Shown here in pieces: positions 7,458 through 26,367 of a DNA stretch of 64,000 bases. The position numbers were made by a program, and so were the translations under genes. A model generated the notes under the pieces. That model was not told where the DNA came from. It saw only the letters and a program-made list of their open reading frames with translations, and made no database searches. This stretch comes from Halorutilales archaeon Cl-col2-1. Lineage in GTDB: Archaea; Halobacteriota; Halobacteria; Halobacteriales; Afararchaeaceae. The stretch lies in the NCBI GenBank assembly GCA_041891055.1, contig CP169074.1, forward strand, positions 1,664,001 through 1,728,000, in the 5' to 3' direction. How positions within the stretch are numbered: the stretch's first letter is position 1; every line of letters starts with the position of its first letter.

Positions 7458-7529
7458 GGGCCGGTAGATCAGTGGTAGATCGCTTCCTTCGCAAGGAAGA
7501 GGCCCGGGGTTCAAATCCCCGCCGGTCCA
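7458..7529 (+). tRNA. tRNA-Ala (anticodon CGC); integration target
   Basis: GGGCCGG...CCGGTCC-A acceptor stem with G3:U70, anticodon arm CTTCC-TTCGCAA-GGAAG, GGTTCAAATCC T-loop. Confidence 0.95.
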
Positions 7530-7668
7530 AAACCTATGTTTTGGAGCATTCGAGAAACGTAGTTTCTCGATACGGTCCATACGAATTCTTACGGATTCCT
7601 CGGGAACACAAAACCACCATACAGCGACGGTTTTACCCCTCGCAAATACCTTCCCGTGAAAGTGAGTC
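7517..7668 (+). repeat. Left att direct repeat (tRNA 3' end + ~139 bp)
   Basis: CCCCGCCGGTCCAAAACCTATG...GTGAAAGTGAGTC matches 25644-25795 with 5 mismatches. Confidence 0.93.
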
Positions 7669-7724
7669 TGACTCGTCTCGGAACGGAGGTCTGCTCTTTC
7701 CGGCTTTTATTTTGAGGAACCGAG

Positions 7725-9710: not shown

Positions 9711-10155
9711 TCCGAGATCGGACAGCCTAAGCTTTACTCAGTTTATGTTTTATTTCTGATATATCCATCTAAGAAACGCCATAGGGCGGTATCTTACTGT
9801 TTTCAGCGACTATACCGCGCGACATGAGTAGCTTCTCGATCTTGTGTGTAACTACGTCTACAGAGCTATGCGACGTCTAGATGTTTCGCCAAAATCTGTC
9901 AATATCCCCTTATATGTGTGCGTAAGCGCGCAAAATCAAAACCCGCCGTAGCCTCTTTTTGTCTAAGTGATCCAGTTGATCCACGGGAAATGAGGGTAGT
10001 TAAAGTAGAGATCATACGCTATTTTAATCGGAGACTTGGGAATAACATACATAGGAACGGCTAAGGATTTATTGCTATCTATTGGAGTTCAAAGTTTGAA
10101 AATATATCGGGGGAAGTGAGAATGTATGTAGTTTAACACTCAGAAACTAGGGTAT

Positions 10156-10247
10156 GTACAAATCCTAATCTAAGGCATTATTACTTATTAGATTTGTATT
10201 ATGCTTGTACTATCCTATTTTCAATCCCAGTTAAGCCTTATTCCCTC
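10156..10247 (-). ncRNA. crRNA-like regulatory RNA (pseudo-repeat, 30-nt guide, pseudo-repeat), CreR/CreA-like
   Basis: 10218-10247 matches the array repeat 22/30; second degenerate repeat ~10156-10187; guide seed matches the cas6 promoter beside a CCT PAM. Confidence 0.75.
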
Positions 10248-10323
10248 ATTTCCATATTTCATCTTTCTGATATATATCATTTATCTTAATCAAATATATC
10301 AAATAGGATACATTTCACCTAAC

Positions 10324-10356
10324 TTTTATTAACAAATCTTATGTACTGTCCTAAGG
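10324..10356 (+). promoter_or_regulatory. Putative cas6 operon promoter (TATA-like TTTTATTAA) with guide target 10342-10353 and PAM 10354-10356
   Basis: TATA about 30 nt upstream of GTG 10358; minus strand reads CCT-TAGGACAGTACA. Confidence 0.65.
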
Positions 10357-10357
10357 G

Positions 10358-11099
10358 GTGTTAAGAAATCAGACTATACATTCGATCAGATAGCGGGAAA
10401 AAACCCCGGTTCCAATTGCCCTGGAACTACCACATGTCTTTCCAGAGTTTCATATACCAAGCTCTGGACAAATACGAGCCGGAGATAGCTACCAAACTAC
10501 ATCAATACCCTCATGCACCACCATTCTCGTTCAGCGAATTCATCCAAACCGGTCCTTTTCAGGCTACAGATGATGGGCTAATGTGTGAGAGCGGATATTG
10601 GATCGTCACGTCTGACGATAAGAGAATCATAGACGCTGTGGCTAACCATGCTCAACATGATAGCAAGCTAACTCTCGGACACACAACAATCCCCGTCACT
10701 GGAGTAGATATTGAGAAGATCCAGGGTAAGGAGAAAGAGAGGTACAAGTCTACGAGTCCGATATACGTAAGTCAAAGAGGAGAAGATGGAGAAGTAGAGG
10801 ATCTTTTCCCAGAAGACGGAATGTGGTACTCTCGTCTGAAGGACAGCGTTAGAGATAGGATTCGTCATGAGAGAACTCTCCCAGATGATTTCCAGTTTAT
10901 CATCGATGAAGTCCATTGGTCGAAGAAAAAACGCCTACGTTCGGGAGATGGATGGCGATCCTGTTCTCGACTAGAGTTAACGATCAGATCCGATCTAGAG
11001 ACGAGTGAGTTCATTCAGCAACAAGGGCTCGGAGAAAAAACTGGGATGGGTTTTGGTAATCTCATGCCCACCAATGAAATCCCGGAGGAGTGGCGATGA
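10358..11099 (+). CDS. cas6: CRISPR-associated endoribonuclease Cas6 (N-terminus apparently frameshifted; intact ORF from TTG 10416)
   Basis: LPWNYH, FSFS and C-terminal GLGEKTGMGFG glycine loop. Confidence 0.9.
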
Positions 11100-13009
11100 G
11101 TATTCAAGCAGATATTGAAAAGTTTGAGGAAGGAAAAGAGAAGAAACTTCTCTTCAAGCTCTCCCAAGATGCATTCGTAAATGAGGGGGCGGTCGAAATG
11201 GCGAGGGGTCTTGGGGACTTAGTGGAGATAGAAAGCAACAAGATACTGATTAACTCAGAGGCTTCGAAATCAGAAGTAGCAGAGCGGGTAGAAGATATAT
11301 TAAGAGAAGGATTATCTCAGACACACCGGAGAACTAACGTAGCTCACCAGATTAACGATACTGTTGATGAGAGAGACGAGTTAGATGATAGCCTGAGAGT
11401 AGGTGCACCAAACACACATTTTCCGATGGATTCTGACGAAGATGAGACGGTGTACGAAAATGATACAGTTAATATTGAAGAGCTAAGAAATGTCGGCATA
11501 GATCCATCGGAGATAGATATAGACGAAGGTGATGAAAAGAGCCTCTATACGCTTTCGCCGACATTCGTAGGAAGACCACAGCCGGGAAGATACGGTTTCC
11601 AAGCCTCCCTCGATAACACTGAGGATTACTTTGATATATTTACGAAATACATAGAAGGCGAATATGAAGGATCAGAGGATGACTACTGTACCAACTGTGG
11701 TTCCAGTGGAATACCAAGCTGGCAGGTGGAGGACGAAGAAGGAAATAAAATTAAACTAGAGCACAGCCAAGCATCCTCAATACTGTTAACTAAGTCGAGT
11801 AATCCGTCTCCTCTTGGTCAGGGGTCACCCAAAAGCAGTTATCAAGGTAGATGTGTTTCGTGTCTTATAGCAGGATTCTATTACACGCTGATCGAGAAAG
11901 CAGTTCGTCTCGTAAGTTTCGATGATGGGGGAGAATACCGTATTTTTACTCCAGTAGGTGACTTTGAGGAGTTACGTAATATACGCGGAGATCTGACTAA
12001 CATCTGGGAAAGCGGAGGTGAAGGAGGAAGAACTATTAATGAACCTACATCGAACAGCAAAGCTCGGCAGCAGAATATAGGATCTACAAGAAGTAGATCC
12101 AAGGGGATACAGATACTCGACTTCTTCAGCGAGGTTCTCAGACAGGGTAATATAGATATTGTAGGAGGAGAATACTCTAAAGAGACGATTCACAGACCCA
12201 CTTCTCTAATAACTTATATTACCTCTCCAATGAAGAGTGGCAACTATGTTAGAGAGATAAAGTCGTTTGAAAGTGTGGATTCGGACAGTTGGATATACGA
12301 AGTTGTCCGTGAGAGAGAGTTAGAACCAGAAGGTCAAGAAGATGAAGATTGGGATGAGAGTTACTGGGCTGTACCCGACGTTTTGTCTTGGTTTGCAAAT
12401 ATATCCCAGAATAGCGAGGAAGTTGGAATAGACGAGAAGGATATGATTGGCTACGGGATAATAGAGAAGGATCTAAAACAGATAGAGAGAGGTCTATTCG
12501 AGCTTCTGAAGAAAGTCGAGAAAGAGAAGGGGGAAATAACTCCCTATATGTTACCCATCGCAAAAACAAGAAACTATTTCGGAGATATCATGAGACAATC
12601 AGCAAGCACTGAGAGTATAGACAGTGAACAGATCGAGAGCATCACGAATGTAGCCTCCAACCTTGGGGGGATGTTCTATGACAGGGATAATATAAGCGTG
12701 CTAATATCCCTCCAGAGCTCGAACACTCCCTCCGAGTTTTTACAAGCATTCGAGAAGGCGTCTATGCAGGCTCAAAAGATGATAACTGACGAAGGTGAAG
12801 GAGGAGAGGATGAGGAGTTCCGAAGAAAGGCAATAAACCGCTGGTCGGGAAAAGAAGACATCGAGACTGTTCTTGAATTAATAACAGATCCAGACAAGTT
12901 TGAGGACGCAAAAAGAATGTTCGTTATACAAGCATCGCTGTCGGCACATTACCAGAATAGTGTAAAGAACTACCAAGAGAGCCAGTCAGATACTGGAGGT
13001 GATCAGTAA
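11090..13009 (+). CDS. cas8: Type I large subunit Cas8 (Cst1/CXXC_CXXC-like) with C-terminal small-subunit domain
   Basis: Located between cas6 and cas7; CTNC and CVSC motifs; helical C-terminus. Confidence 0.8.
   Translation: MAMSIQADIEKFEEGKEKKLLFKLSQDAFVNEGAVEMARGLGDLVEIESNKILINSEASKSEVAERVEDILREGLSQTHRRTNVAHQINDTVDERDELDDSLRVGAPNTHFPMDSDEDETVYENDTVNIEELRNVGIDPSEIDIDEGDEKSLYTLSPTFVGRPQPGRYGFQASLDNTEDYFDIFTKYIEGEYEGSEDDYCTNCGSSGIPSWQVEDEEGNKIKLEHSQASSILLTKSSNPSPLGQGSPKSSYQGRCVSCLIAGFYYTLIEKAVRLVSFDDGGEYRIFTPVGDFEELRNIRGDLTNIWESGGEGGRTINEPTSNSKARQQNIGSTRSRSKGIQILDFFSEVLRQGNIDIVGGEYSKETIHRPTSLITYITSPMKSGNYVREIKSFESVDSDSWIYEVVRERELEPEGQEDEDWDESYWAVPDVLSWFANISQNSEEVGIDEKDMIGYGIIEKDLKQIERGLFELLKKVEKEKGEITPYMLPIAKTRNYFGDIMRQSASTESIDSEQIESITNVASNLGGMFYDRDNISVLISLQSSNTPSEFLQAFEKASMQAQKMITDEGEGGEDEEFRRKAINRWSGKEDIETVLELITDPDKFEDAKRMFVIQASLSAHYQNSVKNYQESQSDTGGDQ
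12590..13009 (+). CDS. cas11: Putative internally translated Cas11 small subunit (139 aa)
   Basis: GGAG SD-like motif 5 nt before in-frame ATG (GGAGATATCATG) at the start of the C-terminal domain. Confidence 0.6.
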   Translation: MRQSASTESIDSEQIESITNVASNLGGMFYDRDNISVLISLQSSNTPSEFLQAFEKASMQAQKMITDEGEGGEDEEFRRKAINRWSGKEDIETVLELITDPDKFEDAKRMFVIQASLSAHYQNSVKNYQESQSDTGGDQ

Positions 13010-13947
13010 TGAAAGCAATAGGTATGAACTACCTGACCTATGTAGACCTCGGGAATCATAACGCAGGAGAAGGAGGAAGTCAATTATCCGACCTCAAAAA
13101 GTACGGAAACAAGCCCTACATCAGTGGACAGGCATACCGACACTCAATCAAAGACGCTCTGAAAGCAATAGTCGATGACTTGAGTACTGTAGACTGCACT
13201 CCGAGGAACGCATGTGGGGACATAGAGAACTGCAAGCTGTGTGACCTATTCGGTTACATGAATACTGATCTAGAACCCGATGACGGAGAACCCAATCCAA
13301 ATAGAGTTTCACCGCTTAGGGTTAGTCCTCTAGTTGGGCAGTATGACATGCCGATAACGACAGATCTCGTCGTCCAATACGATGTAGAAGGCGATAATCG
13401 TATGGCACGCCGGGAAATAGAGGAGAACGTATTCAAGGGAGGGATTGCGCTGGATCTAGATTCTATAGGAAGACGAGAGAATGAGGAAGTCAATACAGAC
13501 AGGGACTACGACGAGCAGTATCATCGTGAGCTTGAAAACGAGATAGACGAAGACGAGAGGAAAGAAAGAGCGAAGGAACTCATAGATGCTGTTCAAAACA
13601 GCACACAGCTAGCAGGTCAGGCTCGCCACATGGCAGATTTCATGCCGGATCTTCTGGTAGTCTCAAGCCAAGACCAGTACAACCAGAGAGTAAGCAATGC
13701 ATTACATGTTGACCCCGAATCCGGCGAACTCAACACAAAATCCTTCGAGAGCGTACTCCAAGACCTCACTAATATGGAGTCTGACGGTGAGGGGAAGGTG
13801 TGGGTCGCTGGAACGTATAACCCCGAAGTAATCTCAAACTGGGATGAAGTGATGGAAACCGCCGAAGAAATTGAGGGAGTGACTATTGTTGATACCGTAA
13901 GTGGATGTTATGAGGCGGTAAAAGAAGAAATCGACTCGGAACTATAG
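13009..13947 (+). CDS. cas7: Cas7 (Cst2/DevR family)
   Basis: N.GE, PYISGQAYRH, CDLFGYM and RVSPLRVS motifs. Confidence 0.9.
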   Translation: MKAIGMNYLTYVDLGNHNAGEGGSQLSDLKKYGNKPYISGQAYRHSIKDALKAIVDDLSTVDCTPRNACGDIENCKLCDLFGYMNTDLEPDDGEPNPNRVSPLRVSPLVGQYDMPITTDLVVQYDVEGDNRMARREIEENVFKGGIALDLDSIGRRENEEVNTDRDYDEQYHRELENEIDEDERKERAKELIDAVQNSTQLAGQARHMADFMPDLLVVSSQDQYNQRVSNALHVDPESGELNTKSFESVLQDLTNMESDGEGKVWVAGTYNPEVISNWDEVMETAEEIEGVTIVDTVSGCYEAVKEEIDSEL

Positions 13948-13951
13948 TATA

Positions 13952-14677
13952 ATGACCCAACAGATCCTCCGAGCTACGCTTGACGTACCTTTCGAGTGTG
14001 CATTTAGAGACCCAGACTCGATGAACGCCTTACCTACATACAGTGTTCCACCAGTTACTACACTCCAAGGAATGCTATATGCTGCACTTGCACGTCCTTC
14101 CCTACTTTTCCAGTCAGGTAGAAGCCGGTATATTCCAAAAGACCTGAGAGATGATGAGGAAGAGTTTCGTAGGGAGGTTCAAGACAAGTGTCAGTTTGGC
14201 ATAAGAGTCATAGAACAAGGGAAAGAGTACAACGGTCTGAAGACTCGTCAGAAGATGGAGGATAAAAGAGGGCAAAATGACGCGAGGTATAAAAGCTATG
14301 TGACAAATGAGGAAACTTTGATCGAGCCCACATTTCGGATTTATATAACTGAAAATGGAGGGGAGGAATACCTAGATATATTCAAGCAAGCTCTTGAAGA
14401 TCCTTCTCGAATGCTGTATTTAGGACGCTCAGATGATATAGTAGATGTATGTGATGTTCATCTCATTGAAGCCGAGAAGGTAAACAAAACCAAGAGTCTG
14501 GACTGTGTCGTCCCAAGTGCTGAAGGAGAGCATCTAGAGATGTTGCCCGTGGAGCCAGATCACAGATCCGGTCGTTCTACAAAGCCTCCAAGAGTCAAGG
14601 CAGTTTCAATAGATGGTGCCGAGGTGGGTAGTTATTATCGTACTTCAGATGGGGAAGAGTTTGTATTTATAACTTGA
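13952..14677 (+). CDS. cas5: Cas5
   Basis: AFR.P, TYSVPPVTTLQGML and LYLGRSDD motifs. Confidence 0.92.
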   Translation: MTQQILRATLDVPFECAFRDPDSMNALPTYSVPPVTTLQGMLYAALARPSLLFQSGRSRYIPKDLRDDEEEFRREVQDKCQFGIRVIEQGKEYNGLKTRQKMEDKRGQNDARYKSYVTNEETLIEPTFRIYITENGGEEYLDIFKQALEDPSRMLYLGRSDDIVDVCDVHLIEAEKVNKTKSLDCVVPSAEGEHLEMLPVEPDHRSGRSTKPPRVKAVSIDGAEVGSYYRTSDGEEFVFIT

Positions 14678-14721
14678 TTCTTTTTTAAGTTTTTCTCAGC
14701 TTCCGTCGAAGAGTTGAACTA

Positions 14722-17238
14722 ATTTCAATCCCACTTAGGCACTATTACGACTCCGAGACGCTCAGAACCTTGACCGAGAACATGAGACAATTTCAATCCC
14801 ACTTAGGCACTATTACGACGAACGAGTCTCTTCGTATCCTCCTATCGATACCATCATTTCAATCCCACTTAGGCACTATTACGACTCCGAGACGCTCAGA
14901 ACCTTGACCGAGAACATGAGACAATTTCAATCCCACTTAGGCACTATTACGACGAACGAGTCTCTTCGTATCCTCCTATCGATACCATCATTTCAATCCC
15001 ACTTAGGCACTATTACGACAGTTCCTCCATGCGTTCGCTCCAAGCCGACTTAGTCGAATTTCAATCCCACTTAGGCACTATTACGACAGTTCCTCCATGC
15101 GTTCGCTCCAAGCCGACTTAGTCGAATTTCAATCCCACTTAGGCACTATTACGACAGTTCCTCCATGCGTTCGCTCCAAGCCGACTTAGTCGAATTTCAA
15201 TCCCACTTAGGCACTATTACGACAGTTCCTCCATGCGTTCGCTCCAAGCCGACTTAGTCGAATTTCAATCCCACTTAGGCACTATTACGACAGTTCCTCC
15301 ATGCGTTCGCTCCAAGCCGACTTAGTCGAATTTCAATCCCACTTAGGCACTATTACGACACGTCTTCGTCAACGAAACTTATTCCGCTGTCGATCAATTT
15401 CAATCCCACTTAGGCACTATTACGACATCATCCACGCGAACCACCAGTGCTTCAGAGGCGTCATTTCAATCCCACTTAGGCACTATTACGACCGTATCTG
15501 ACCTGCCGGACAGGGGCTTTCGAGCACCGAAATTTCAATCCCACTTAGGCACTATTACGACCCGGGCGATGCGCGCGGATATGCGGAGCAGTTAATCCAT
15601 TTCAATCCCACTTAGGCACTATTACGACCAACTGGAACGGACTAATGAGGACTCTTGGAGGACTATTTCAATCCCACTTAGGCACTATTACGACAACTTC
15701 GTAGTCTACATCAAAGTCTTCGTTGTCATCATTTCAATCCCACTTAGGCACTATTACGACAACTTCGTAGTCTACATCAAAGTCTTCGTTGTCATCATTT
15801 CAATCCCACTTAGGCACTATTACGACAACTTCGTAGTCTACATCAAAGTCTTCGTTGTCATCATTTCAATCCCACTTAGGCACTATTACGACTTTGAGAT
15901 TGATCCAGACGATTCTTCTCCCTGGCGTTATTTCAATCCCACTTAGGCACTATTACGACCGTAGCCGCGCCGCTAAACGCTCCCTCGAGGAGACTCGCAT
16001 TTCAATCCCACTTAGGCACTATTACGACGAGAACGAGGTCGCGCGCGAAACGAGAGAGTATCTTGAATTTCAATCCCACTTAGGCACTATTACGACGGCA
16101 AAAAACGGAGTCGCTGAATCGAGCGGTCGAGGATATTTCAATCCCACTTAGGCACTATTACGACACGACTGCGAAACCAGCCCTCGACTGAGGATAGATG
16201 GGATTTCAATCCCACTTAGGCACTATTACGACTATGCCGGCGAGCCAGCTATATTGAGGAGCCGAGTCATTTCAATCCCACTTAGGCACTATTACGACTC
16301 GGAGAAAGCCAACTCTGATGACATGGTGCTCGAAGAATTTCAATCCCACTTAGGCACTATTACGACAATATCTCGAAGAGAAGTCGGGAGTCGATGAATC
16401 ATATTTCAATCCCACTTAGGCACTATTACGACAATACGGCGAGAGACAATCATAGTTCGTTCTTTGACATTTCAATCCCACTTAGGCACTATTACGACCA
16501 GCGACTCCTATATTTCAGGACCGGCACATGGAGAAATTTCAATCCCACTTAGGCACTATTACGACTCAGGACCCGCACATGGAGAAGGGGATAACGCGTT
16601 CATTTCAATCCCACTTAGGCACTATTACGACGGAAGGTAACTGGACAAACATCGATGAGTCTAAATTCCCATTTCAATCCCACTTAGGCACTATTACGAC
16701 TATGAGATCGGATCCTCTGAGATCGGCATCTTCGAGATATTTCAATCCCACTTAGGCACTATTACGACACGATCCCGCCGCGGAGTATGAGGACAGTCTA
16801 TGGCATTTCAATCCCACTTAGGCACTATTACGACTCTCCATCTCGGAATCGGATGTCACCGTCTCTCGCCAATTTCAATCCCACTTAGGCACTATTACGA
16901 CAAGTTCGAGAGCTACACGTTCGACCTCGCAGTCGGTCATTTCAATCCCACTTAGGCACTATTACGACAGAGACTTAATCAAGATCCAGAAACGCGACCG
17001 GCAATATTTCAATCCCACTTAGGCACTATTACGACCCGTTATACTGAACGGTCGTCGAGTCGGTAATCAGTTCATTTCAATCCCACTTAGGCACTATTAC
17101 GACCGCCGGCAGAACTCCCAGTTTCTCGACTATGACTTCATTTCAATCCCACTTAGGCACTATTACGACTGCATATCTTCTTGATCGGCATCTTCGACAC
17201 ACTCTCGCATTTCAATCCCACTTAGGCACTATTACGAC
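14722..17238 (-). CRISPR. CRISPR array: 38 identical 30-bp repeats (sense GTCGTAATAGTGCCTAAGTGGGATTGAAAT), 37 spacers of ~36-39 bp (29 distinct)
   Basis: Counted directly; orientation from the ATTGAAA(T) 3' end and the AT-rich leader on the cas2 side. Confidence 0.98.
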
Positions 17239-17354
17239 CTAGAGTAAGAAATTTATACTAGATAAGTGTTCTTGAAGTATTAGCCTTCAAAGATAGGCTT
17301 TTCTTCGCTAGCCCATGTGGTAATGTAATCTGGTATAAAGGGGCTAGAATCGAA
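17239..17354 (-). promoter_or_regulatory. CRISPR leader
   Basis: AT-rich non-coding segment between the cas2 stop and the first repeat. Confidence 0.7.
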
Positions 17355-17618
17355 TCATAAGAATCGATTATCTTCTAAAGACTCACCAATTGTCTCTGTC
17401 TCGACCCAATCCGGATTAGAAACCTTATACACAATAACTTGATCATCCCCTTGGACAAGCCCATCCAGACCAGACTTTATTTCCTTATACTCGCTCTGAG
17501 TTAATTCCCCATCAAAAACACTATTTTGCCTCCAAGTTAGCCATTTTCGTAAGTAGTCACATAGCTTTTGAGTTCTACTTGCTTTAACATCGTATACTAT
17601 TATAACGTTCATTTTCAT
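17355..17618 (-). CDS. cas2: Cas2
   Basis: VIIVYDV and QNSVFDGEL motifs. Confidence 0.95.
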   Translation of the reverse strand: MKMNVIIVYDVKASRTQKLCDYLRKWLTWRQNSVFDGELTQSEYKEIKSGLDGLVQGDDQVIVYKVSNPDWVETETIGESLEDNRFL

Positions 17619-18595
17619 CTAGCAGTTGTTGGTTGATACTCTTCTATCTCCAGAATATGCTTAGTTATGCGATGGCATTCCTGACGTATCCATCGTCTCC
17701 AAGACATATTACGTCTGATTTGAGGATGTTTCCTAGTTTGCAGTAGACGTTCATCGAAAGCATCAACAAAAGTCGATTTAGCAGATTCATTCATACTACA
17801 GAAGTCCCCTTCCTTCTCGAAATCGTCAGGGGTTATTTTTCCTTGGTTAGCTAGACCTATAATCAGCCTGTCAACTATCAGAGGCTTGAAAATTTCAGCG
17901 ATATCCAGACTTAGACTATACCGTCTCTCGTGTGGCTCGTGGAGAAAACTCACTGTCTGGTCAAGACGTGTATGATATATTTCTGTTACTATAGAACCAT
18001 ATAACATTGAATTACCATAACTCATTAAACTATTAGAAGGATCTTCGGGAGGATTCTTAGAACGACCGTTCAATTCCATTCCATCAGCGATTACGTGGTC
18101 AAAACCATCGTAGTATATCTTACGTGCCTCACCTTCGATTTCCATTAATTCAGGTATAGACTCTGCATTCTCGAGAAGCTGTTTTCTAAGTTCAAGTTCT
18201 TCATCAGCTATACAGCAATTGTTTTCCCCATATCTAAGTAGGGTTAGCCTAAGGTTTTCTATACTACCTTTGACGAATTTTCGAGCTAACTTCAGACGCT
18301 TTTCTTCGTCTAAATAATATTCAGACTGTTTTGTCACACACATCCCACTCAGAATAGGCTTAGGTGGCTGAAAACAGCCTAAATACTTGCCGCCATAACT
18401 AAAGACATGTAATGTTGTGTTGGTTTCTTCAAGTAGATCATGGACTCCAGGGGTTATGGTAATCCCCTCAGTAGCGAATATATCATAGACTTTCTCAATA
18501 GGAATTGGTGTCTTGTCGTTCTCAGTTTCGAAATAAAGAGTGTTCCGTTCCCGAGTTAAGGTTCCCCTTGAATTTATGTAATATCTATCTTTCAT
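17615..18595 (-). CDS. cas1: Cas1 (type I-B)
   Basis: MEIEG, PPEDPSNSLMSYGNSMLY, FLHEP and SLSLDIAEIFKP motifs. Confidence 0.96.
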   Translation of the reverse strand: MKDRYYINSRGTLTRERNTLYFETENDKTPIPIEKVYDIFATEGITITPGVHDLLEETNTTLHVFSYGGKYLGCFQPPKPILSGMCVTKQSEYYLDEEKRLKLARKFVKGSIENLRLTLLRYGENNCCIADEELELRKQLLENAESIPELMEIEGEARKIYYDGFDHVIADGMELNGRSKNPPEDPSNSLMSYGNSMLYGSIVTEIYHTRLDQTVSFLHEPHERRYSLSLDIAEIFKPLIVDRLIIGLANQGKITPDDFEKEGDFCSMNESAKSTFVDAFDERLLQTRKHPQIRRNMSWRRWIRQECHRITKHILEIEEYQPTTAR

Positions 18596-19089
18596 GCAAA
18601 ACAGAACTCCCTCATACTACATTTTTTACAGGCAGTTTTCCACTCCGGATCTGGACAATCCCCCTCGATAATCTCTCGTATGTTTTTAGTCACCTCATCA
18701 TGTCTTTTCTGGATGTCTTCAGACCAATCCATCTCTTTTTTTGTGCTTTCTTCAGGGTATCTTAGAATACCCACAACTTCAGTTTCTTTTTCCGAGTGGA
18801 GTAAATGCATATAATGAATCAGTTGTATTTCATCAGCATCTTGATACGTAGAGGAGCGTTTGACCTCGTTTATCTCTATTTTGTCCCCCTTGCGTATGAA
18901 ATCTATCTGATTATTTCCGATATTTTTTGTATCTTCTCTCTTGAAGCTATCTGAGTCAAGTAATTCCCCAAGCTTCACGTATTCGTTCTCATCTGCATAA
19001 AGAATCCTATAATGGTGGTACCAGAGCTTAGTTTTACATATTGTATAGTAGTGATAGTGCTGTCCAGTAAGCTCTCTTTCAGATATCAT
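18592..19089 (-). CDS. cas4: Cas4
   Basis: N-terminal Cys, EVK, QL..Y and C-terminal CKKCSMREFC Fe-S motif. Confidence 0.95.
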   Translation of the reverse strand: MISERELTGQHYHYYTICKTKLWYHHYRILYADENEYVKLGELLDSDSFKREDTKNIGNNQIDFIRKGDKIEINEVKRSSTYQDADEIQLIHYMHLLHSEKETEVVGILRYPEESTKKEMDWSEDIQKRHDEVTKNIREIIEGDCPDPEWKTACKKCSMREFCFA

Positions 19090-21579
19090 CTATAGTTGTG
19101 TACTAGATCGAATGTCATCTGGTATTCTTCTTACCTCAGTGTCTGGGGGTATTACCCCATACTCATAACTATACTCTATGTTGATCACCTGAGTTCCTTC
19201 AATTTCACCGTATTCATCCTTAAATCTATGGGGAGGATCGAGAGTTATATCATCACTAACTAACCACCACTTGGGTATAGGGACAGTATATTCTCTGAGA
19301 AAAACGCTCAAGTCCTCTTTACACTCATTGTAATAGTCTTCATGTACTCCACATCTACCATTCCTATCGCAATCATGGAATTCTTTCCATAGGTCACTAG
19401 GTAATGGAGACTCCGAATTGTGATGATATTTGGAAGGCAACATAGAGATACGTCGACTGCTATCCTCACGGATATTCAGATCTTCCGATCCTTCTGTCTC
19501 GTCCTCACCCAACCTTCGTAGCTTTCCATAGAGTAGGTCATTCGAAATAGCATTTCCGAACTGAGTTGTGTTCATATTCATCTTACTTAGATCCACTCCT
19601 GTGTACGATTCTTCTACCCACTTCAGGCTGTCTTTAAAGCTATACATGCCAGCATTCTCGAAGACCTTCTCAGTCTGTTCTAAGATCTTCCACTTCTCTT
19701 TTTCCTCAGGACTTTGATCTTTGTAGCCTGCGTAGGGGTACCACGTATCTGTATCTTCATCCGAAATCGGAGAAAAGACTACACAACGATACTTGTGATT
19801 TTGATCATCCTGTTTGAAGCTTGCACACTGATCACAGTTACAGTCCTCCGAGCTGGGTCTATATCCTTCTCTGTGGAGTCTGCCTGCCCTCTGTATTACT
19901 GCGTCGGCAGGTGCTATATCAGTCAGAAGCAAATCCGCTGAGAGATCGAGACTGATCTCACACACCTGTGTGGATACGAGAAACTGTCTTTCATCCGGAT
20001 TCGAATCTATTCCGAATATATCGCGTATCTCCTCTTCCTTATCTTGCCTATGGTCTTGAGTAAATTCGCTACTATAGTAGGTAACATTCTCACCGTCTTC
20101 CTTTAGATCCCAAGCGAGATCTCTAGCCCCAGATACAGTATTTTTGACTATCATCACCTTCTTCGCGTCACTTTCTTCTAGGTACTCTTGAACTTCGGAG
20201 GTGGTGAGTTCAGAGTTTTCTGTAATAACTTCAAATGCTTCTCTCACTCCCTGATCTTCTTCGAGTATCCCTTCACTCCGGACTTTCTCTGAGCCATCGA
20301 AAGCTCGGTCATTCTGTAGTTGTTGAGGCATGGTGGCGGTCATAACATACCAAGGCACACCAAGATCATCGAGTCTTCTTATCGTCGAAAGTATATGACC
20401 CGTGGTATATGCATCGTAGGCATGTATCTCATCAAATATAACTGCACTTCGTAACACGTTGCCCTTTGCTATGCTTGCCGTTTTGTATCCATTCACAAGA
20501 GAAGAGAGTAGATGGTCAACAGTACAGACTGTCACAGGCTTCTGGAACCATTTTCTTGCTTCTTCACCAAGGTTCTCTGATTTCCAGACCTGTTCTCCGG
20601 TACTTTCGAGGAAACTCTTATCCGCACCGTGGTATAGTGCTGCTTTGCTAGCTTCAATTTCCTCGTCTCCCTTGGTCATTGAAAGCAGAAGATTATTCGT
20701 AGTCACCTGGGTTGGCATCGCAAATATCATTCTGTCTGCTTTCTCTTCTTCTATCATCTTCTGCCCCCACTGGAACGCTGTGTGGGTTTTTCCTTCACCA
20801 CATCCGGCAAGCCCCAAGAGATGATCTGTATCAGTCTCTTCTATTTCTTTTTGGAAAGGTCGGAGTGATGAGAATAGATCTATATCGTCGGAATAGAGAG
20901 TCTCAAACTGGGTTTTTGGGTCTCCGGATTCCTTCGAGCTAACATAATGGTCAGCTTGGACTAAAGCGGAGTGTAAAAGAGTGGAGAGAATACCCACTTC
21001 CAGATAATCAGACTCTGATAGCTCCTTCTTTCGGTACTCACGTAACTGGGATTTAAGGCTTTTTTTCAGGTTAGTATCTATTTCAGTTTCCGGAAGACCG
21101 ATACTCCCGACGTTATCCACCATTTTTTGAGTCCCAGATATAGAATAGAGTCTACTGTTTTCTGGTCTCATTTTGCCCATCGTGAATGGGGTATGGTGAT
21201 GAAGAATAGCAAGAGTTAGAGAAACCCCTTGGTTTATAGGAAGACCTTCATCTCTAGCTTTTGCGAATGCGTAAATCCCACTTCTATCGCTATGAGTGGG
21301 TAAATTTGGTTTCTTGTCTTGTCTTACTGCATTTTTAGCTTCAGACTGCCATTCTTCATGAGCTTTCCCGACATCGTGGTAGAGTCCAGCTAACTCCCCG
21401 CAGTCTAGGATGTCACCGAAATCGGTTTCAAGTTCCCTCGCTATTCTTTTAACAGCATGTGAGTTGAGTATAGATCTCGTTTCCTTCGATACTTCTTCTA
21501 AATGAGTTTTAAGAGTTACTTGGTCGGAGATGGACTTCGAACGATCTAGTTTAGCTATGAGAGGCTGCATCCTCTTCAA
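19090..21579 (-). CDS. cas3: Cas3 HD nuclease-helicase
   Basis: HDVGK, HH, ADH, GEGKT, DEIH, TAT and QRAGRLHR motifs; start may be ATG 21570. Confidence 0.96.
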   Translation of the reverse strand: MKRMQPLIAKLDRSKSISDQVTLKTHLEEVSKETRSILNSHAVKRIARELETDFGDILDCGELAGLYHDVGKAHEEWQSEAKNAVRQDKKPNLPTHSDRSGIYAFAKARDEGLPINQGVSLTLAILHHHTPFTMGKMRPENSRLYSISGTQKMVDNVGSIGLPETEIDTNLKKSLKSQLREYRKKELSESDYLEVGILSTLLHSALVQADHYVSSKESGDPKTQFETLYSDDIDLFSSLRPFQKEIEETDTDHLLGLAGCGEGKTHTAFQWGQKMIEEEKADRMIFAMPTQVTTNNLLLSMTKGDEEIEASKAALYHGADKSFLESTGEQVWKSENLGEEARKWFQKPVTVCTVDHLLSSLVNGYKTASIAKGNVLRSAVIFDEIHAYDAYTTGHILSTIRRLDDLGVPWYVMTATMPQQLQNDRAFDGSEKVRSEGILEEDQGVREAFEVITENSELTTSEVQEYLEESDAKKVMIVKNTVSGARDLAWDLKEDGENVTYYSSEFTQDHRQDKEEEIRDIFGIDSNPDERQFLVSTQVCEISLDLSADLLLTDIAPADAVIQRAGRLHREGYRPSSEDCNCDQCASFKQDDQNHKYRCVVFSPISDEDTDTWYPYAGYKDQSPEEKEKWKILEQTEKVFENAGMYSFKDSLKWVEESYTGVDLSKMNMNTTQFGNAISNDLLYGKLRRLGEDETEGSEDLNIREDSSRRISMLPSKYHHNSESPLPSDLWKEFHDCDRNGRCGVHEDYYNECKEDLSVFLREYTVPIPKWWLVSDDITLDPPHRFKDEYGEIEGTQVINIEYSYEYGVIPPDTEVRRIPDDIRSSTQL

Positions 21580-21649
21580 ATATATTAACTATCTGTCTTT
21601 AAATATTCATCTCCGAAAAGGATTATATGGATCAAAGATTGGTTCTATT

Positions 21650-21729
21650 AGTATAATAGTGCCTAGGTTGGATTGAAATACGAGATGCCCGTGCAGATAG
21701 CTCGACAGAAGGTATTGGCTTCTTTTTCC
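21650..21729 (+). ncRNA. Solitary degenerate CRISPR repeat plus ~40-nt spacer-like segment and T-rich end, divergent from cas3
   Basis: 21650-21679 matches the repeat 24/30 with intact GGATTGAAAT; BRE/TATA-like CGAAAAGGATTATAT upstream; TTCTTTTTCC downstream. Confidence 0.65.
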
Positions 21730-21830
21730 TGACTTCTTCTTCAAGCTCGATTAACCCAACCTTTTCTAACTCAGTACATCGTGATAGGTCGTAACAACAA
21801 TTTCTCTGGCTCTATTAGTGATTCTTAACT
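21700..21830 (-). pseudogene. Possible eroded HVO_A0114-like wHTH fragment
   Basis: Minus-strand frame TELEKVGLIELEEEVRKKKP, interrupted upstream; family resemblance recalled, not searched. Confidence 0.3.
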
Positions 21831-21952
21831 AGCCGATTTTCCTGTAAATTCGGGTAGAAGACCTTGAATATACTCCATATAGACATTAATTCACACTCTC
21901 AATCCATGGTACTATCCGGAAGTTCAAAGTAAAAACGGGTATAACGATAACT

Positions 21953-22567
21953 ATGGCTGAAGTCTGGATGACAGAGGATGAGATACAGGATCTCGAACTC
22001 CAAGCCGATAAGCTCAGAGATAGACTCATAATACAGCTTGGTGCTTACAGCGGTATGAGAATTGGCGAGATTGTAAACCTCCAAGTATCCGACCTAAACC
22101 AGGACACTGTTGATGGAGAACTGAGATACTTCGCGAAGGTTGAGGGGAAGAAGACCGATCAAGAAGCCGAAGGTAAGACAGAGACGAAGACCCGTGACGC
22201 TTGGATAACCCAGGATACCTGGAAAGACCTACAGACCCACATAAACCAGGAGAATCTCACTAATGACGACTATATCATGAACTCCAGATACGGAGGGAAG
22301 ATACACAAAGACAGCGCGAGGAAAATAGTAAAAAGAATTGCTGAGAAAGCCTACGAGCAGACTGAAAAAGAGAAATTCCTTGATGTGAGTAGCCATGACC
22401 TACGACGCTTTTTTGCCCATCATCTGGCTGAAGAAAAGGGTGTTAATATACGTGTAGTTATGGATCTTGGTGGCTGGGAAGATCTACAGACATTTGTGAG
22501 GCACTACTTGGATAAACCAAGTAAGATGACTAAAGCCCAAGAGCTCGATAATGCAGGCTGGAGTTAA
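21953..22567 (+). CDS. Short tyrosine recombinase (catalytic domain only)
   Basis: GMRIGE, HDLRR and LGGW...HY catalytic motifs. Confidence 0.9.
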   Translation: MAEVWMTEDEIQDLELQADKLRDRLIIQLGAYSGMRIGEIVNLQVSDLNQDTVDGELRYFAKVEGKKTDQEAEGKTETKTRDAWITQDTWKDLQTHINQENLTNDDYIMNSRYGGKIHKDSARKIVKRIAEKAYEQTEKEKFLDVSSHDLRRFFAHHLAEEKGVNIRVVMDLGGWEDLQTFVRHYLDKPSKMTKAQELDNAGWS

Positions 22568-22880
22568 GACCCGACAATAGCACGCTCATACTTTCTACTA
22601 CCACCAATATAACTAATTAGCCATTCACGTCTCCTAATTTTGAAAGTACCGAGATCCTTAATTCGTTAATTCCGGACAGCTCAGGGGAATTAGTATTACG
22701 CGATACGAGCGAGGATGTATCCATATGAAGACGTAGATGGATTACTATTAGACAACCTACTTCTGTCGAATAGGAAATATCCCATTTACCCGCCGCTTGA
22801 TGGCATATTTCTAAAACCGCTGTAAGGCGTTGGGTTAATGGACAAGTTAAGTATCTTGAGTACGTGTATAGATTTGTAAA

Positions 22881-23216
22881 ATGACCGTACTGAACTGTAA
22901 TAGCTGTGGTCACGGCTGGAACTACTCCGGAGGTCTTACTGACTACACGACATGTCCTAATTGTGGACATTCAGTAAAGATTCCTTCGGCAGATAGTTCC
23001 AATTTTAAAGCAGAAGACGTCGAAGAGGAAATGGGATCGTTCGAAGAACGTCTCGACCGGTTAGAAGAGACGTTAACGAAGGTACAAGATGACCTCATTA
23101 CTATCGAGGAGAAGATATCAGATAGAGACAAAGCCTCTTCTAAAACCGAGACTGACGAGAAGAGCAACGAGGGAGGTCTATCTCCCTATGACCCTACGAT
23201 GGAATTTGAATTTTAA
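22881..23216 (+). CDS. Zn-ribbon/coiled-coil small protein
   Basis: CNSCGHGW...CPNCG followed by a heptad-like segment. Confidence 0.7.
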   Translation: MTVLNCNSCGHGWNYSGGLTDYTTCPNCGHSVKIPSADSSNFKAEDVEEEMGSFEERLDRLEETLTKVQDDLITIEEKISDRDKASSKTETDEKSNEGGLSPYDPTMEFEF

Positions 23217-23239
23217 AACGACGGGAAGAACTCCTCCTA

Positions 23240-24154
23240 TCACTTCTCGACGTTCTCGACTTCCTCTTGAGTCAAAAGATCCTCGATGTCCATCTTTTCC
23301 TCTATGTCCTCTGTGTCCGGGATCTCGGAAATTCTCTCTTCTTCGTCTTCTGAGTCGTCAGATAGATCCATATCTATCACTTCTACGTTCTTTAGGAAAA
23401 CAGCATCCTCCCACGGTCGAAGTAGGTACGCTCCGGTACCTGCTACAGTGAGATAGGCTATACCGTCTAAGTCGCCTTCTTTCTTTTCGAATTTCCACTC
23501 TGTATTCTCCGGTAAATCTGGAAGACGTGTACTGAACCTACCAAGCTCTTTTTCGACCAAAGGTACGGCGAATTTACTATTTAACTCCGCGGTTAGAAGT
23601 GCGTAAGAAGAGTTCTCGAATATTCCCATGTCGAACTCCACAGTGGCTAAATGTCCATGTGCCTCGTTCTTTTTCTCTACCTTATCCGAAAATCTCTCTT
23701 CAGGAGGCAGTTCATCGAGGTCTTCCTCTTCGTATGATATGACGTTTATCAGCCTCGTCATTTTAAAATCGTCACCAACAACTACGAAATATGCCTTATC
23801 GCCCGAGGTCAGTTTCTCTCCGTCGTGGGTATAGACACACGACATGTCTTTTACTCCTCCGACCAGACGCCCTTCCCAGTATTCCTTGACTAATCTACGT
23901 GCTCTTTCTTCATCTGATAACTCTTGGTTGGGCTCTGTCTCTATGCCTACAACATAGTATGCTGTGGCATTACTGACCTTTACCGAGTCTATCTTCTCCC
24001 CCTTAGACAACTCTTTAAGACGGTTCTTTGCCGTAGTCTTGCTAACACCTGTATGCTCCGCTATCTGGGACGCCGTCCATACCGGACGGCTTCCGCTTTT
24101 CATGAGGGTCAAGACCTCCTCTTTCGTCAACTCCCTGTCTCTTCCGCGTGACAC
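23240..24154 (-). CDS. Winged-HTH domain protein (putative element regulator)
   Basis: N-terminal WTASQIAEHTGVSKTTAKNRLKEL HTH; divergent from the integrase. Confidence 0.7.
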   Translation of the reverse strand: MSRGRDRELTKEEVLTLMKSGSRPVWTASQIAEHTGVSKTTAKNRLKELSKGEKIDSVKVSNATAYYVVGIETEPNQELSDEERARRLVKEYWEGRLVGGVKDMSCVYTHDGEKLTSGDKAYFVVVGDDFKMTRLINVISYEEEDLDELPPEERFSDKVEKKNEAHGHLATVEFDMGIFENSSYALLTAELNSKFAVPLVEKELGRFSTRLPDLPENTEWKFEKKEGDLDGIAYLTVAGTGAYLLRPWEDAVFLKNVEVIDMDLSDDSEDEEERISEIPDTEDIEEKMDIEDLLTQEEVENVEK

Positions 24155-24462
24155 TATTGGCTATTCAATGCCTGTTAACTTAGCTTTTCTGTTCGAACTG
24201 AAACCCCGTTTCAGACATAAAGTTTAAGTCAAGGGATCTCATTAGTAACACTCAGGATGACATAACAAACACAGTGGTAATATCGCGGGAAAAGCTACCT
24301 GACCCCCAGATGCCCACGCCCTACCAAAGCACGGCATCTTTCGAGGGTCGGTGAAATACCCCATCAGAAGGGGTTGTATAGATACACCCATATTTAGAAC
24401 CTCGACCAATTAATGGTTTGGGTTACTCTACTCCTTCTGATGGGTCGTCTAAGACGACCACA

Positions 24463-24594
24463 ATGAAAAACGAAATACGAAACCAGAAACCGACAGAAGG
24501 CGAAAAGAGAACTAACAGAAACGGACGACGGGTACGAATACCTCTCACCTCAGAGATAGCCGGGACAGTGGAAGGGGTGGTTCCGGATGAGTGA
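24463..24594 (+). CDS. Small 43-aa ORF overlapping the integrase start
   Basis: MKNEIRNQKPTEGEKRTNRNGRRVRIPLTSEIAGTVEGVVPDE; overlaps the integrase ATG. Confidence 0.35.
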   Translation: MKNEIRNQKPTEGEKRTNRNGRRVRIPLTSEIAGTVEGVVPDE

Positions 24595-25603
24595 ACTACA
24601 GCCTCTCGAACCTGAGGAAGGGGTTGAGATGTATCTTGATACCCGAGAGGACGAGCTCAGTAGGGAGACGTTACGGAAACAGAAGACGCGTCTCGATGCT
24701 TTTCTGAGCTGGTGTGAGGACAGAGGTATAGAGAACCTCAACGAACTGACCGGCAGAGATCTCCAGCGGTACCGACAGTGGCGCAAGAAGGGCAAGGGGG
24801 ACGGATACGGTAAGGTCAAAAACGTCACACTAAGGTCTAATCTCACTACACTCCGAGTTTTCCTCGAACACTGTGCGAATATCGATGGTGTCGAGAAGGG
24901 GATGCGAGAACGTGTTATGCTTCCTGAGGTGGAGGATGGAACGAAGGACAGTAAGATAGCCGAAGAACGTGTTAGGGATATACTCGATAAACTCGAAACC
25001 TACGAGTACGCGTCTCGTAGGCACGTGATGATATCCCTGATGTGGCACGGTGCTCTACGTATCGGGACTATACGTGCTCTCGACGTCGGTGACTTCGATC
25101 CCGATGAGCCCTGTCTGAAGATACGCCACCGTCCAAGCACAGACACACCCCTCAAGAACCGTGAAAGTGCAGAACGAGATCTTGCTCTCGGTGACTTCTA
25201 CGCTCAGGTTATAGAGGACTACATCGAGGAGAACCGCCATGATGTCCAGGATGACTACGGAAGGCATCCTCTCATAACAAGTACAGAAGGAAGGCTGACA
25301 AAGACTCCATACAGAACTGCGGCGTATAGGGTCTCACTTCCGTGTTGGACAGATGACTGTCCACATGGCAAGCAGCGAAAGACGTGTGAATGGACGAGCC
25401 GCGATAAGCTTAGTCACTGTCCTAGTTCGAAGTCTCCTCACGACTTCCGACGCTCGTCTATCACATACCATCTCAAAGAGAACGTTCCTCCGGAGATAGT
25501 CTCAGACCGTGTCGACGCTACTCCTGACGTAATTGAGAAGCACTACGACAAGAGGAACGAACGCGAGAAGATGCGGACGAGGAAGGAGCTCCTAAACTTA
25601 TGA
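24587..25603 (+). CDS. Tyrosine integrase (haloarchaeal SNJ2-like)
   Basis: ALRIG, TPLKN, CPHG..C..CPSSKSPHDFRR and KHYD motifs; adjacent to att. Confidence 0.93.
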   Translation: MSELQPLEPEEGVEMYLDTREDELSRETLRKQKTRLDAFLSWCEDRGIENLNELTGRDLQRYRQWRKKGKGDGYGKVKNVTLRSNLTTLRVFLEHCANIDGVEKGMRERVMLPEVEDGTKDSKIAEERVRDILDKLETYEYASRRHVMISLMWHGALRIGTIRALDVGDFDPDEPCLKIRHRPSTDTPLKNRESAERDLALGDFYAQVIEDYIEENRHDVQDDYGRHPLITSTEGRLTKTPYRTAAYRVSLPCWTDDCPHGKQRKTCEWTSRDKLSHCPSSKSPHDFRRSSITYHLKENVPPEIVSDRVDATPDVIEKHYDKRNEREKMRTRKELLNL

Positions 25604-25643
25604 GTCGGAACGCGGTCATACACAATACGGTTATAGTCACGCC

Positions 25644-25795
25644 CCCCGCCGGTCCAAAACCTATGTTTTGGAGCATTCGAGAAACGTAGTTTCTCGATAC
25701 GGTCCATACGAATTCTTACGGATTCTTCGGGAACACAAAACCACCATACAGCGACGGCTCCACCCCTCGAAAATACCTTCCCGTGAAAGTGAGTC
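25644..25795 (+). repeat. Right att direct repeat
   Basis: Copy of 7517-7668 (147/152 identical). Confidence 0.93.
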
Positions 25796-25869
25796 CGAAT
25801 AATACAGGGACTGAATGTGAGTAAATAAGACAAAAGACTCTATACACAGTTATGCCAGAGACAGAGGAT

Positions 25870-26367
25870 CTACTCCTCCACTTCTATAACATAGACGTTC
25901 TCCTCGTACGGTTCGCCTTCTATCTCGGTTTCGTTGGTGTCGTCTTTCTCGAAGCCGAGACTCTGGTAGAACGAGTTCCCCACCTGGTTGTCGGCGAGGA
26001 CGAAGACCTTGAGACGTTCGACTCCGAGATCCGAGAGCCTCTCCCGTATCTCGTGTAGGAGACGCGTTCCTATCCCCTTTCTCCTGTGGTCGGGGTCGAC
26101 GTAGAGACGTAGGAGATCGGCTTCGTCTCCGTTAACGACAGCGTGTGAGAAGCCGCCTATCTCGCTGTCTTCTTCGTAGACGAGGAAAGACGAGTCGGGC
26201 ATACGTATCGCGTCCTCGAGTGTCTCAGTCGAGTACCAGTCCTCGACAGTCTCGTCTATCTCTTCCTTGCCGAGTATGTCGGCGTAGGTGTCTTCCCACG
26301 ACCTGTGGGCGACCTCCTGTACCTCGTCTATGTCATCCCTCTCGGCTTCACGTATAGCGTTTCCCAT
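25870..26367 (-). CDS. GNAT family N-acetyltransferase
   Basis: LYVDPDHRRKGIGTRL and N...FY..LGF motifs. Confidence 0.9.
   Translation of the reverse strand: MGNAIREAERDDIDEVQEVAHRSWEDTYADILGKEEIDETVEDWYSTETLEDAIRMPDSSFLVYEEDSEIGGFSHAVVNGDEADLLRLYVDPDHRRKGIGTRLLHEIRERLSDLGVERLKVFVLADNQVGNSFYQSLGFEKDDTNETEIEGEPYEENVYVIEVEE

Follow-up and report, generated by a model that had tools for sequence, protein, structure and literature searches.

In Halorutilales archaeon Cl-col2-1, a type I-B CRISPR-Cas cassette is bordered on its cas3 side by a solitary, slightly diverged copy of the locus's own repeat, which reads away from cas3 and is followed by one spacer-like segment. This element, here designated unit 2 and made up of the pseudo-repeat psiR and the pseudo-spacer psiS2, is a known kind of element, namely a single repeat unit with one spacer-like segment. 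On balance, we favour an origin as the stump of a second outward-facing array, or of a one-spacer mini-array, that holds a genuine spacer and does not control the cas genes in cis.

The window analysed comprises 64,000 nucleotides (G000:C1:1664001-1728000) of a 2.06-Mb genome on four contigs. Between positions 10001 and 24000, its GC content is 41%–46%, against roughly 52%–60% elsewhere in the window, and this low-GC stretch holds the CRISPR-Cas cassette (Table 1). The type assignment is accompanied by a match of cas1 to the I-B 'HMARI' model at 366 bits. The leader of the array adjoins cas2, and the repeat, given on the minus strand on which the array reads, is GTCGTAATAGTGCCTAAGTGGGATTGAAAT. 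In the trailer half of the array (14722-15360 and 15665-15890), repeat-spacer units have undergone tandem duplications, with one spacer present five times, another three times, and one two-spacer block twice. The adjacent spacers 10 and 11 (16536-16671) share a 21-nt overlap with one difference; they derive from the same site in two related invaders, and their overlap points to CCC as the 5′ flank of spacer 11.

Two 155-bp direct repeats, 96% identical, occur at 7517-7671 and 25644-25798. tRNA-Ala (7458-7529) extends with its 3′ end into the left copy, and an integrase gene is present at 24587-25603; the whole CRISPR-Cas cassette thus appears to sit within an integrated island of about 18 kb. 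In the same-genus genome G011, copies of the 155-bp repeat are found on three contigs, without cas3 and without the CRISPR repeat. A search of Rfam returned no family within 9000-26000 at E up to 1.

Table 1. Features of the CRISPR-Cas cassette and of the two repeat units at its edges (window coordinates).
Feature	Position	Strand	Remarks
Unit 1 mini-array	10161..10247	-	
psiR1	10247-10218	-	22/30 to array repeat
psiS1	10217-10188	-	30 nt, 27% GC
psiR2-like second degenerate repeat	~10184-10161	-	
psiS1 seed target	about 10342..10353	-	TAGGAcAGTACA, position 6 unpaired; 5′ flank CCT
cas6	10416-11099	+	
639-aa gene in cas8b position	11090-13009	+	no family match
cas7	13009-13947	+	
cas5	13952-14677	+	
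CRISPR array	14722..17238	-	38 identical 30-nt repeats, 37 spacers
cas2, cas1, cas4, cas3	17355-21579	-	after the array in cassette order
cas3 (HD + helicase)	19090..21579	-	first in cas3-cas4-cas1-cas2 operon; ATG at 21570
TATA-like TTTAAA (putative)	21598..21603	-	~30 nt upstream of cas3 ATG
BRE-like CGAAA upstream of psiR	21614..21618	+	from sequence only
TATA-like TTATAT upstream of psiR	21623..21628	+	from sequence only
psiR, unit 2 pseudo-repeat	21650..21679	+	24/30 to array repeat; last 26 nt 24/26
psiS2, unit 2 pseudo-spacer	21680..21716	+	~37 nt, 51% GC
wHTH gene fragment, 21 aa	21716..21778	-	tblastn, 81% identity to paralog residues 100-120
T5 run, candidate archaeal terminator	21723..21727	+	44-48 nt past psiR
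Tyrosine recombinase, 204 aa	21953..22567	+	catalytic domain only

An earlier note on this DNA had recorded a 24/30 copy of the repeat with its handle intact, and the copy was duly located on the plus strand beside cas3. The 8-nt handle of psiR, ATTGAAAT, which corresponds to the 5′ handle in the RNA, is identical at all eight positions. A 26-nt degenerate repeat pattern allowing up to three mismatches finds 39 sites in the window, namely the 38 array repeats and psiR, where 100 shuffles of the window yield none. Over the whole genome, a 20-nt core pattern at the same tolerance also finds 38 + 1 sites, and a control in which the pattern was read backwards finds none. When the window was scanned for matches of at least 19/30, only two sites appeared outside the array: psiR itself and psiR1 on the cas6 side. 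Chance resemblance of psiR to the repeat has a negligible probability and is refuted by these counts, together with the fact that, among 200 shuffled repeats, the best match in the window never rose above 21/30.

Four of the six mismatches fall on the 5′-terminal four bases of psiR (P = 5.5e-4 if mismatches were scattered at random), and psiR is thus better described as a 26-nt, 5′-truncated copy with two substitutions. By-eye comparison shows that the repeats of distant relatives are variable at one of these two substituted positions, while the core GGATTGAAA, which those repeats share, is intact in psiR. Alignment of the 80 nt upstream of psiR with the array leader gave nothing beyond AT-richness. 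Unit 2 has what characterises a single repeat unit—a near-identical repeat outside the array, inside the cas locus, and without a detectable downstream repeat—and, having one repeat only, is not a canonical array. Nor is it the tail of the existing array, since the whole adaptation operon lies between the two and their orientations are opposite.

Ahead of psiR, the note's BRE/TATA-like element is present, at 22–36 nt upstream. In haloarchaea, promoters keep a usual spacing from BRE/TATA to the transcription start; at that spacing, transcription of unit 2 would start at about 21650-21654, that is, at the edge of psiR. The putative cas3-side TTTAAA and the psiR promoter-like element stand back to back, 20 nt apart and pointing in opposite directions. 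The downstream sequence that had been quoted, ACGAGATGCC...GGC, is likewise found, as is the T-tract after it (the T5 run). This run is made by lysine codons of an antisense winged helix-turn-helix (wHTH) gene fragment, and the predicted fold of the RNA from 21650 to 21728 (79 nt) is no more stable than that of shuffled sequences (z = 0.63). Upstream of psiR there is also a 9-codon mini-ORF (21628-21657).

Unit 2 retains what a one-handle crRNA gene requires, with its BRE/TATA-like element suitably spaced, the GGATTGAAA core present, and a T5 run behind. Expression of the unit may be given about even chances. The promoter-like element at the right distance, the handle, and the T-run together represent more order than a random stump needs, and this speaks against the stump origin that we favour.

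The spacer-like character of psiS2 lies in its length and composition, since up to the junction described below it resembles the 29 unique spacers of the array, which are 36–39 nt long with a mean GC of 53%. The DNA that flanks it, at 26%–40% GC, is unlike it. No second repeat follows psiS2: the best local alignment score was 14, a score reached by 546 of 2,000 shuffles. Homology to the wHTH gene starts 37–38 nt after psiR, which equals one spacer-length, and the T-run and everything to the right of about 21717 belong to the minus-strand fragment. The fragment corresponds to the 3′ end of a 135-aa paralog (C1:1047346-1047750), lies on the strand opposite to psiR, and has a weaker, frameshifted continuation to about 21822; several further paralogs of this family exist in the same genome. 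When 21560-21960 was compared with 401 genomes of the order, matches were obtained only in the genome itself, in the same-genus G011, and in G171. In the first two, the similarity (85% over 60 nt, window 21717-21776) concerns the 3′-terminal part of a winged-helix gene. That the junction sits at one spacer-length by coincidence is, at a guess, improbable.

Further to the right, the tyrosine recombinase lacks its N-terminal domain; it has a paralog at C1:1302212-1302877 (76% nucleotide and 84% amino acid identity), and homology to this paralog begins 80 nt upstream of the ATG.

The spacer-like GC content and length of psiS2, the junction at one spacer-length, the missing second repeat, and the lack of a seed target together favour an array stump. 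An inert array remnant was what the earlier note had set against its own proposals; as regards the origin of unit 2, it is this outcome that is preferred.

The lack of a seed target bears on a guide of the CreR/CreA kind, with which Cascade would repress a promoter through a 10-nt seed, the target being either distant or lost with a neighbouring cargo or toxin promoter. In creA as described in PMC8501985, pseudo-spacer positions 1–5 and 7–11 pair with the adjacent creT promoter beside a PAM. Apart from itself, the 10-nt seed of psiS2 is matched exactly nowhere in the window, and at one mismatch it has two matches, fewer than the 4.3 given by chance. Across the cas3/psiR promoters, the region upstream of the recombinase, the array leader, and the region upstream of cas6, the best agreement is 6–7 of 10 positions, reached by 164–300 of 300 shuffles. 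The note's by-eye failure to find a CCN-flanked seed match in the intergenic regions is hence upheld by computation, and its suggestions of a regulatory guide or an antitoxin-like guide fail the test in cis that defines them. Genome-wide, six 11-nt seed matches were found, about as many as chance would give; no consistent 5′ flank precedes them (TGA, CGG, GAC, AGG, CCG, and TAG), and five of the six lie inside coding DEMP-type words. The sole intergenic match, at C1:682282 (minus strand), precedes an alcohol dehydrogenase gene by about 160 nt and is the one genomic site that speaks for such a guide. A trans target paired through just 10 bases could nevertheless escape a computational search. 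Where the seed matched in part beside a further wHTH paralog (C1:517785 and C2:31027), the similarity did not extend, and these sites were discarded.

Unit 2 shares with the one-psiR creA of Haloarcula hispanica, a haloarchaeal I-B system, the degenerate repeat, the conserved 8-nt handle, the spacer-like sequence, and the T-rich terminator (PMC8501985), and its anatomy equals that of the one-psiR creA type as set out there. In CreTA, the toxin gene creT is a small mini-ORF with rare codons and a strong SD, and the RNA ends either in a further degenerate repeat or in a T-rich terminator; the T5 run of unit 2 is a candidate for the latter. Unlike CreTA in that account, however, unit 2 has no seed site at a neighbouring promoter, and no toxin gene was identified; reading the 9-codon mini-ORF as one was rejected, as the intergenic region holds no seed target for it. 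CreR is a degenerate mini-CRISPR beside a cas operon promoter, a description that unit 1 fits well (10.1101/2023.03.10.532045); unit 2 resembles it in position and in its conserved 8-nt handle, but, in contrast to CreR as presented in that source, shows no complementarity to the cas3 promoter or other cas promoters in the window and no PAM-flanked seed there.

Unit 1, at the opposite edge of the cassette, provides an internal comparison. Its second repeat is significant, with an alignment score of 26 that was reached by only 2 of 2,000 shuffles. With position 6 left unpaired, the 10-nt seed of psiS1 matches the window at two non-self sites, where 0.14 would be expected. One of these is the target listed in Table 1, which lies between the TATA-like TTTTATTAA (10324-10332) and cas6; the other is at 8719-8729, within a DUF7845 ORF. 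The low GC content of psiS1 resembles that of the promoter DNA matched by its seed. Judged from its sequence, unit 1 is a good candidate for a CreR-type element with a pattern of cas6 autoregulation, in line with the CreR/CreA scheme of 10.1101/2023.03.10.532045 and PMC8501985. On a by-eye reading, a possible mini-ORF of 11 codons (10359-10394, plus strand; GTG TTA AGA ... AGA TAG) with two AGA codons lies just downstream of its target and is followed by a small GC hairpin; this could be a CreT-like element or nothing.

The symmetric layout proposed in the earlier note holds insofar as each cas operon has, at its 5′ edge, one unit that faces outward. These units are not equivalent, however, since unit 2 is without the marks of a regulatory mini-array seen in unit 1: the second repeat, the AT-rich pseudo-spacer, and the seed match in a promoter. 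A CreR/CreA-like role for unit 2 is encouraged by the fact that the same locus appears to use such RNAs, and by the regulator-gene debris and recombinase just downstream, which recall the shuffled cargo described beside mini-arrays (10.1101/2023.03.03.530964). The defining PAM-flanked promoter match was nevertheless sought in cis and not found, the genomic matches are near chance, psiS2 at 51% GC is unlike AT-rich psiS1, and the 9-codon mini-ORF carries no target site; we therefore consider this role unlikely. A related and still less likely proposal is that the locus holds two crRNA-like genes with divided labour, in which unit 1 would autoregulate the Cascade operon and unit 2 would be a trans-acting guide. 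Unit 2 would then repress a distant host gene through its 10-nt seed, with C1:682282 as the candidate site, or, alternatively, would couple expression of cas3 and the adaptation genes to Cascade occupancy through the shared 20-nt divergent promoter region.

Searches for the source of psiS2 in mobile elements bear on a different reading, the stand-alone guide among the options of the earlier note. Unit 2 would then be selected as such a guide: a hard-wired one-handle crRNA gene directed against one virus or plasmid, with its own promoter and independent of the array. Among 50,697 phage and 72,556 plasmid records, psiS2 found only matches with E of 0.2 or higher, and two exact 20-mers from it had no match in IMG/VR. 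The whole-genome and phage/plasmid search that the earlier note had proposed for a unit 2 target accordingly brought no convincing match, the six near-chance seed matches being its only genomic yield. In G171, one of the 401 genomes of the order, a match covers window 21687-21722 at 32/37 with one gap (E 3.8e-4 in G171). It falls within a DUF7346 gene beside rad50/mre11-like and polB genes. About 0.15 such matches are expected over 401 genomes, so that this one is not significant after correction and is only a hint. A gapped pattern built from it found nothing in genome_contigs, and the DUF7346 protein of G171, used as a query, had no match in the genome studied here. That psiS2 might be a diverged 3′ terminus of the wHTH gene was considered and rejected, as nucleotide homology stops at about 21717, with only weak protein similarity beyond it, and as the wHTH fragment and the G171 match are not collinear.

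The array spacers themselves behave similarly. They have no match among phages, no credible protospacer among plasmid records, and, for two spacer patterns, no match in IMG/VR. Partial homologs of their protospacers occur in 17 of 400 other genomes with inconsistent 5′ flanks, and CCN as PAM is hinted at solely by the CCT that lies 5′ of the unit 1 target and by the CCC deduced from spacers 10 and 11. Several array spacers match conserved sequence of other genomes of the order at 75%–83%, which fits acquisition from other haloarchaeal DNA. Spacer 27 (~15427-15462) lies on conserved sequence matched in four other genomes at 28–30/36, and one listing adds a fifth. Since array spacers match conserved genes of other genomes, the G171 match of psiS2 behaves like theirs. 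In addition, psiS2 is identical to spacer 1 at 19 of 36 positions in register, where the maximum among the 406 pairs of array spacers is 17; an identity of 19, taken as the maximum over the 29 spacers, was reached by 46 of 5,000 shuffles. This similarity lies in purine-rich blocks and may be compositional. Together, the resemblance to spacer 1 and the G171 match are weak hints that psiS2 may be a true spacer.

A spacer-like psiS2 also suits a stand-alone guide, for which the promoter-like element, the intact handle, and the T5 run would furnish the anatomy of a one-psiR crRNA gene in the sense of PMC8501985. Such a guide, however, has no protospacer in the phage and plasmid records or, for the two 20-mers, in IMG/VR, and has one marginal match in 401 genomes; moreover, a spacer of this kind could simply reside in the neighbouring array. 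Although crRNAs without a 3′ handle are functional in Haloferax, we hold a stand-alone guide to be as improbable as a CreR/CreA-like one.

Relatives of the cassette lend support to the favoured origin. They are distant: a single Cas3 query drew no relative from genome_contigs, no Cas3 among 5.8 billion proteins exceeds 51% identity, and a search with a Cas3 alignment returned distant loci only, with the best at 35% in metagenome_contigs and at 36%–43% in genome_contigs. No array with the locus repeat was found in genome_contigs, where the repeat core pattern gave 12 single chance matches in unrelated bacteria; in the same-genus G011, neither psiR nor, at 1e-30, Cas3 has a match. In G280:C74, a full array is divergent from cas6 and another follows cas3, and in L113, a full array is divergent from the 5′ end of cas3. 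Arrays that face outward from the ends of the operons are thus usual among these distant relatives, and the full arrays at homologous positions in the two loci support an array stump at the cas3 edge. Over the roughly 36 kb of G061 that were examined, no solitary unit reaches 19/30. Degeneracy affects the distal repeats of its array (19–28/30), yet these retain GGATTGAAA, which means that an intact handle does not in itself imply regulatory exaptation. Unit 2 resembles such degenerate terminal repeats in having diverged while keeping the conserved core.

Single repeat units and degraded mini-arrays are described as common in I-B loci (10.1101/2023.03.03.530964). Unit 2 agrees with the single repeat units of that account in its near-identical repeat, its long intergenic region, and the lack of a detectable downstream repeat or target. 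It differs from them, as there portrayed, in that its 5′ four bases are replaced, a promoter-like element stands at the right distance, and it ends about one spacer-length downstream at a gene-fragment junction. Roles proposed in the same source for such units, which are frequent in CRISPR-cas loci, include that of a single-repeat decoy or recombination handle; unit 2, through its RNA or through the DNA repeat as such, would then titrate Cas6/Cascade or serve as a cassette-exchange site, and its downstream sequence would be irrelevant. Its place at the edge of the cas cassette, beside a recombinase gene, would suit this. Most such units are, however, judged there to be spurious duplications, and psiR has no partner repeat elsewhere in the genome, which leaves a decoy or handle very unlikely.

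Racr, by comparison, is a solitary-repeat RNA anti-CRISPR of phages and plasmids that has its own promoter and acts against the host system. The solitary repeat and the promoter-like element of unit 2 are reminiscent of it, and the earlier note had listed a Racr-like repeat among its options. Unit 2, however, has cas3 on one side and the remainder of the same island on the other, within the host's own cas cassette, and has no phage or plasmid match, so that the fit is poor.

If unit 2 is an array stump, the cas3 edge of the cassette would once have carried a second array facing outward. What remains would be a 5′-truncated copy of the locus's own repeat and one foreign-derived spacer, the array having been cut about where the next repeat would begin, through the junction with the wHTH fragment. 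Were the promoter to fire, Cas6 would cut 8 nt ahead of psiS2, at the conserved GGATTGAAA core position, and Cascade would carry psiS2 as an ordinary interference guide against an invader. A Cas6-dependent RNA from unit 2 would be about 45–55 nt long and would begin with AUUGAAAU. From the sequence we infer that transcription, processing, and loading of this kind may take place.

Solitary repeats found in cas loci now routinely come under suspicion as regulators. The present locus pairs a positive example, unit 1, in which the CreR-type tests succeed, with a negative one, unit 2, which fails them and looks like an array fossil. Regulatory mini-arrays may be told from stumps by criteria that do not call for RNA data, namely the GC content of the pseudo-spacer, the presence of a second degenerate repeat, and a shuffle-tested seed match. 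Expression of unit 2, if it occurs, would provide a natural example of a one-handle crRNA derived from one repeat alone.
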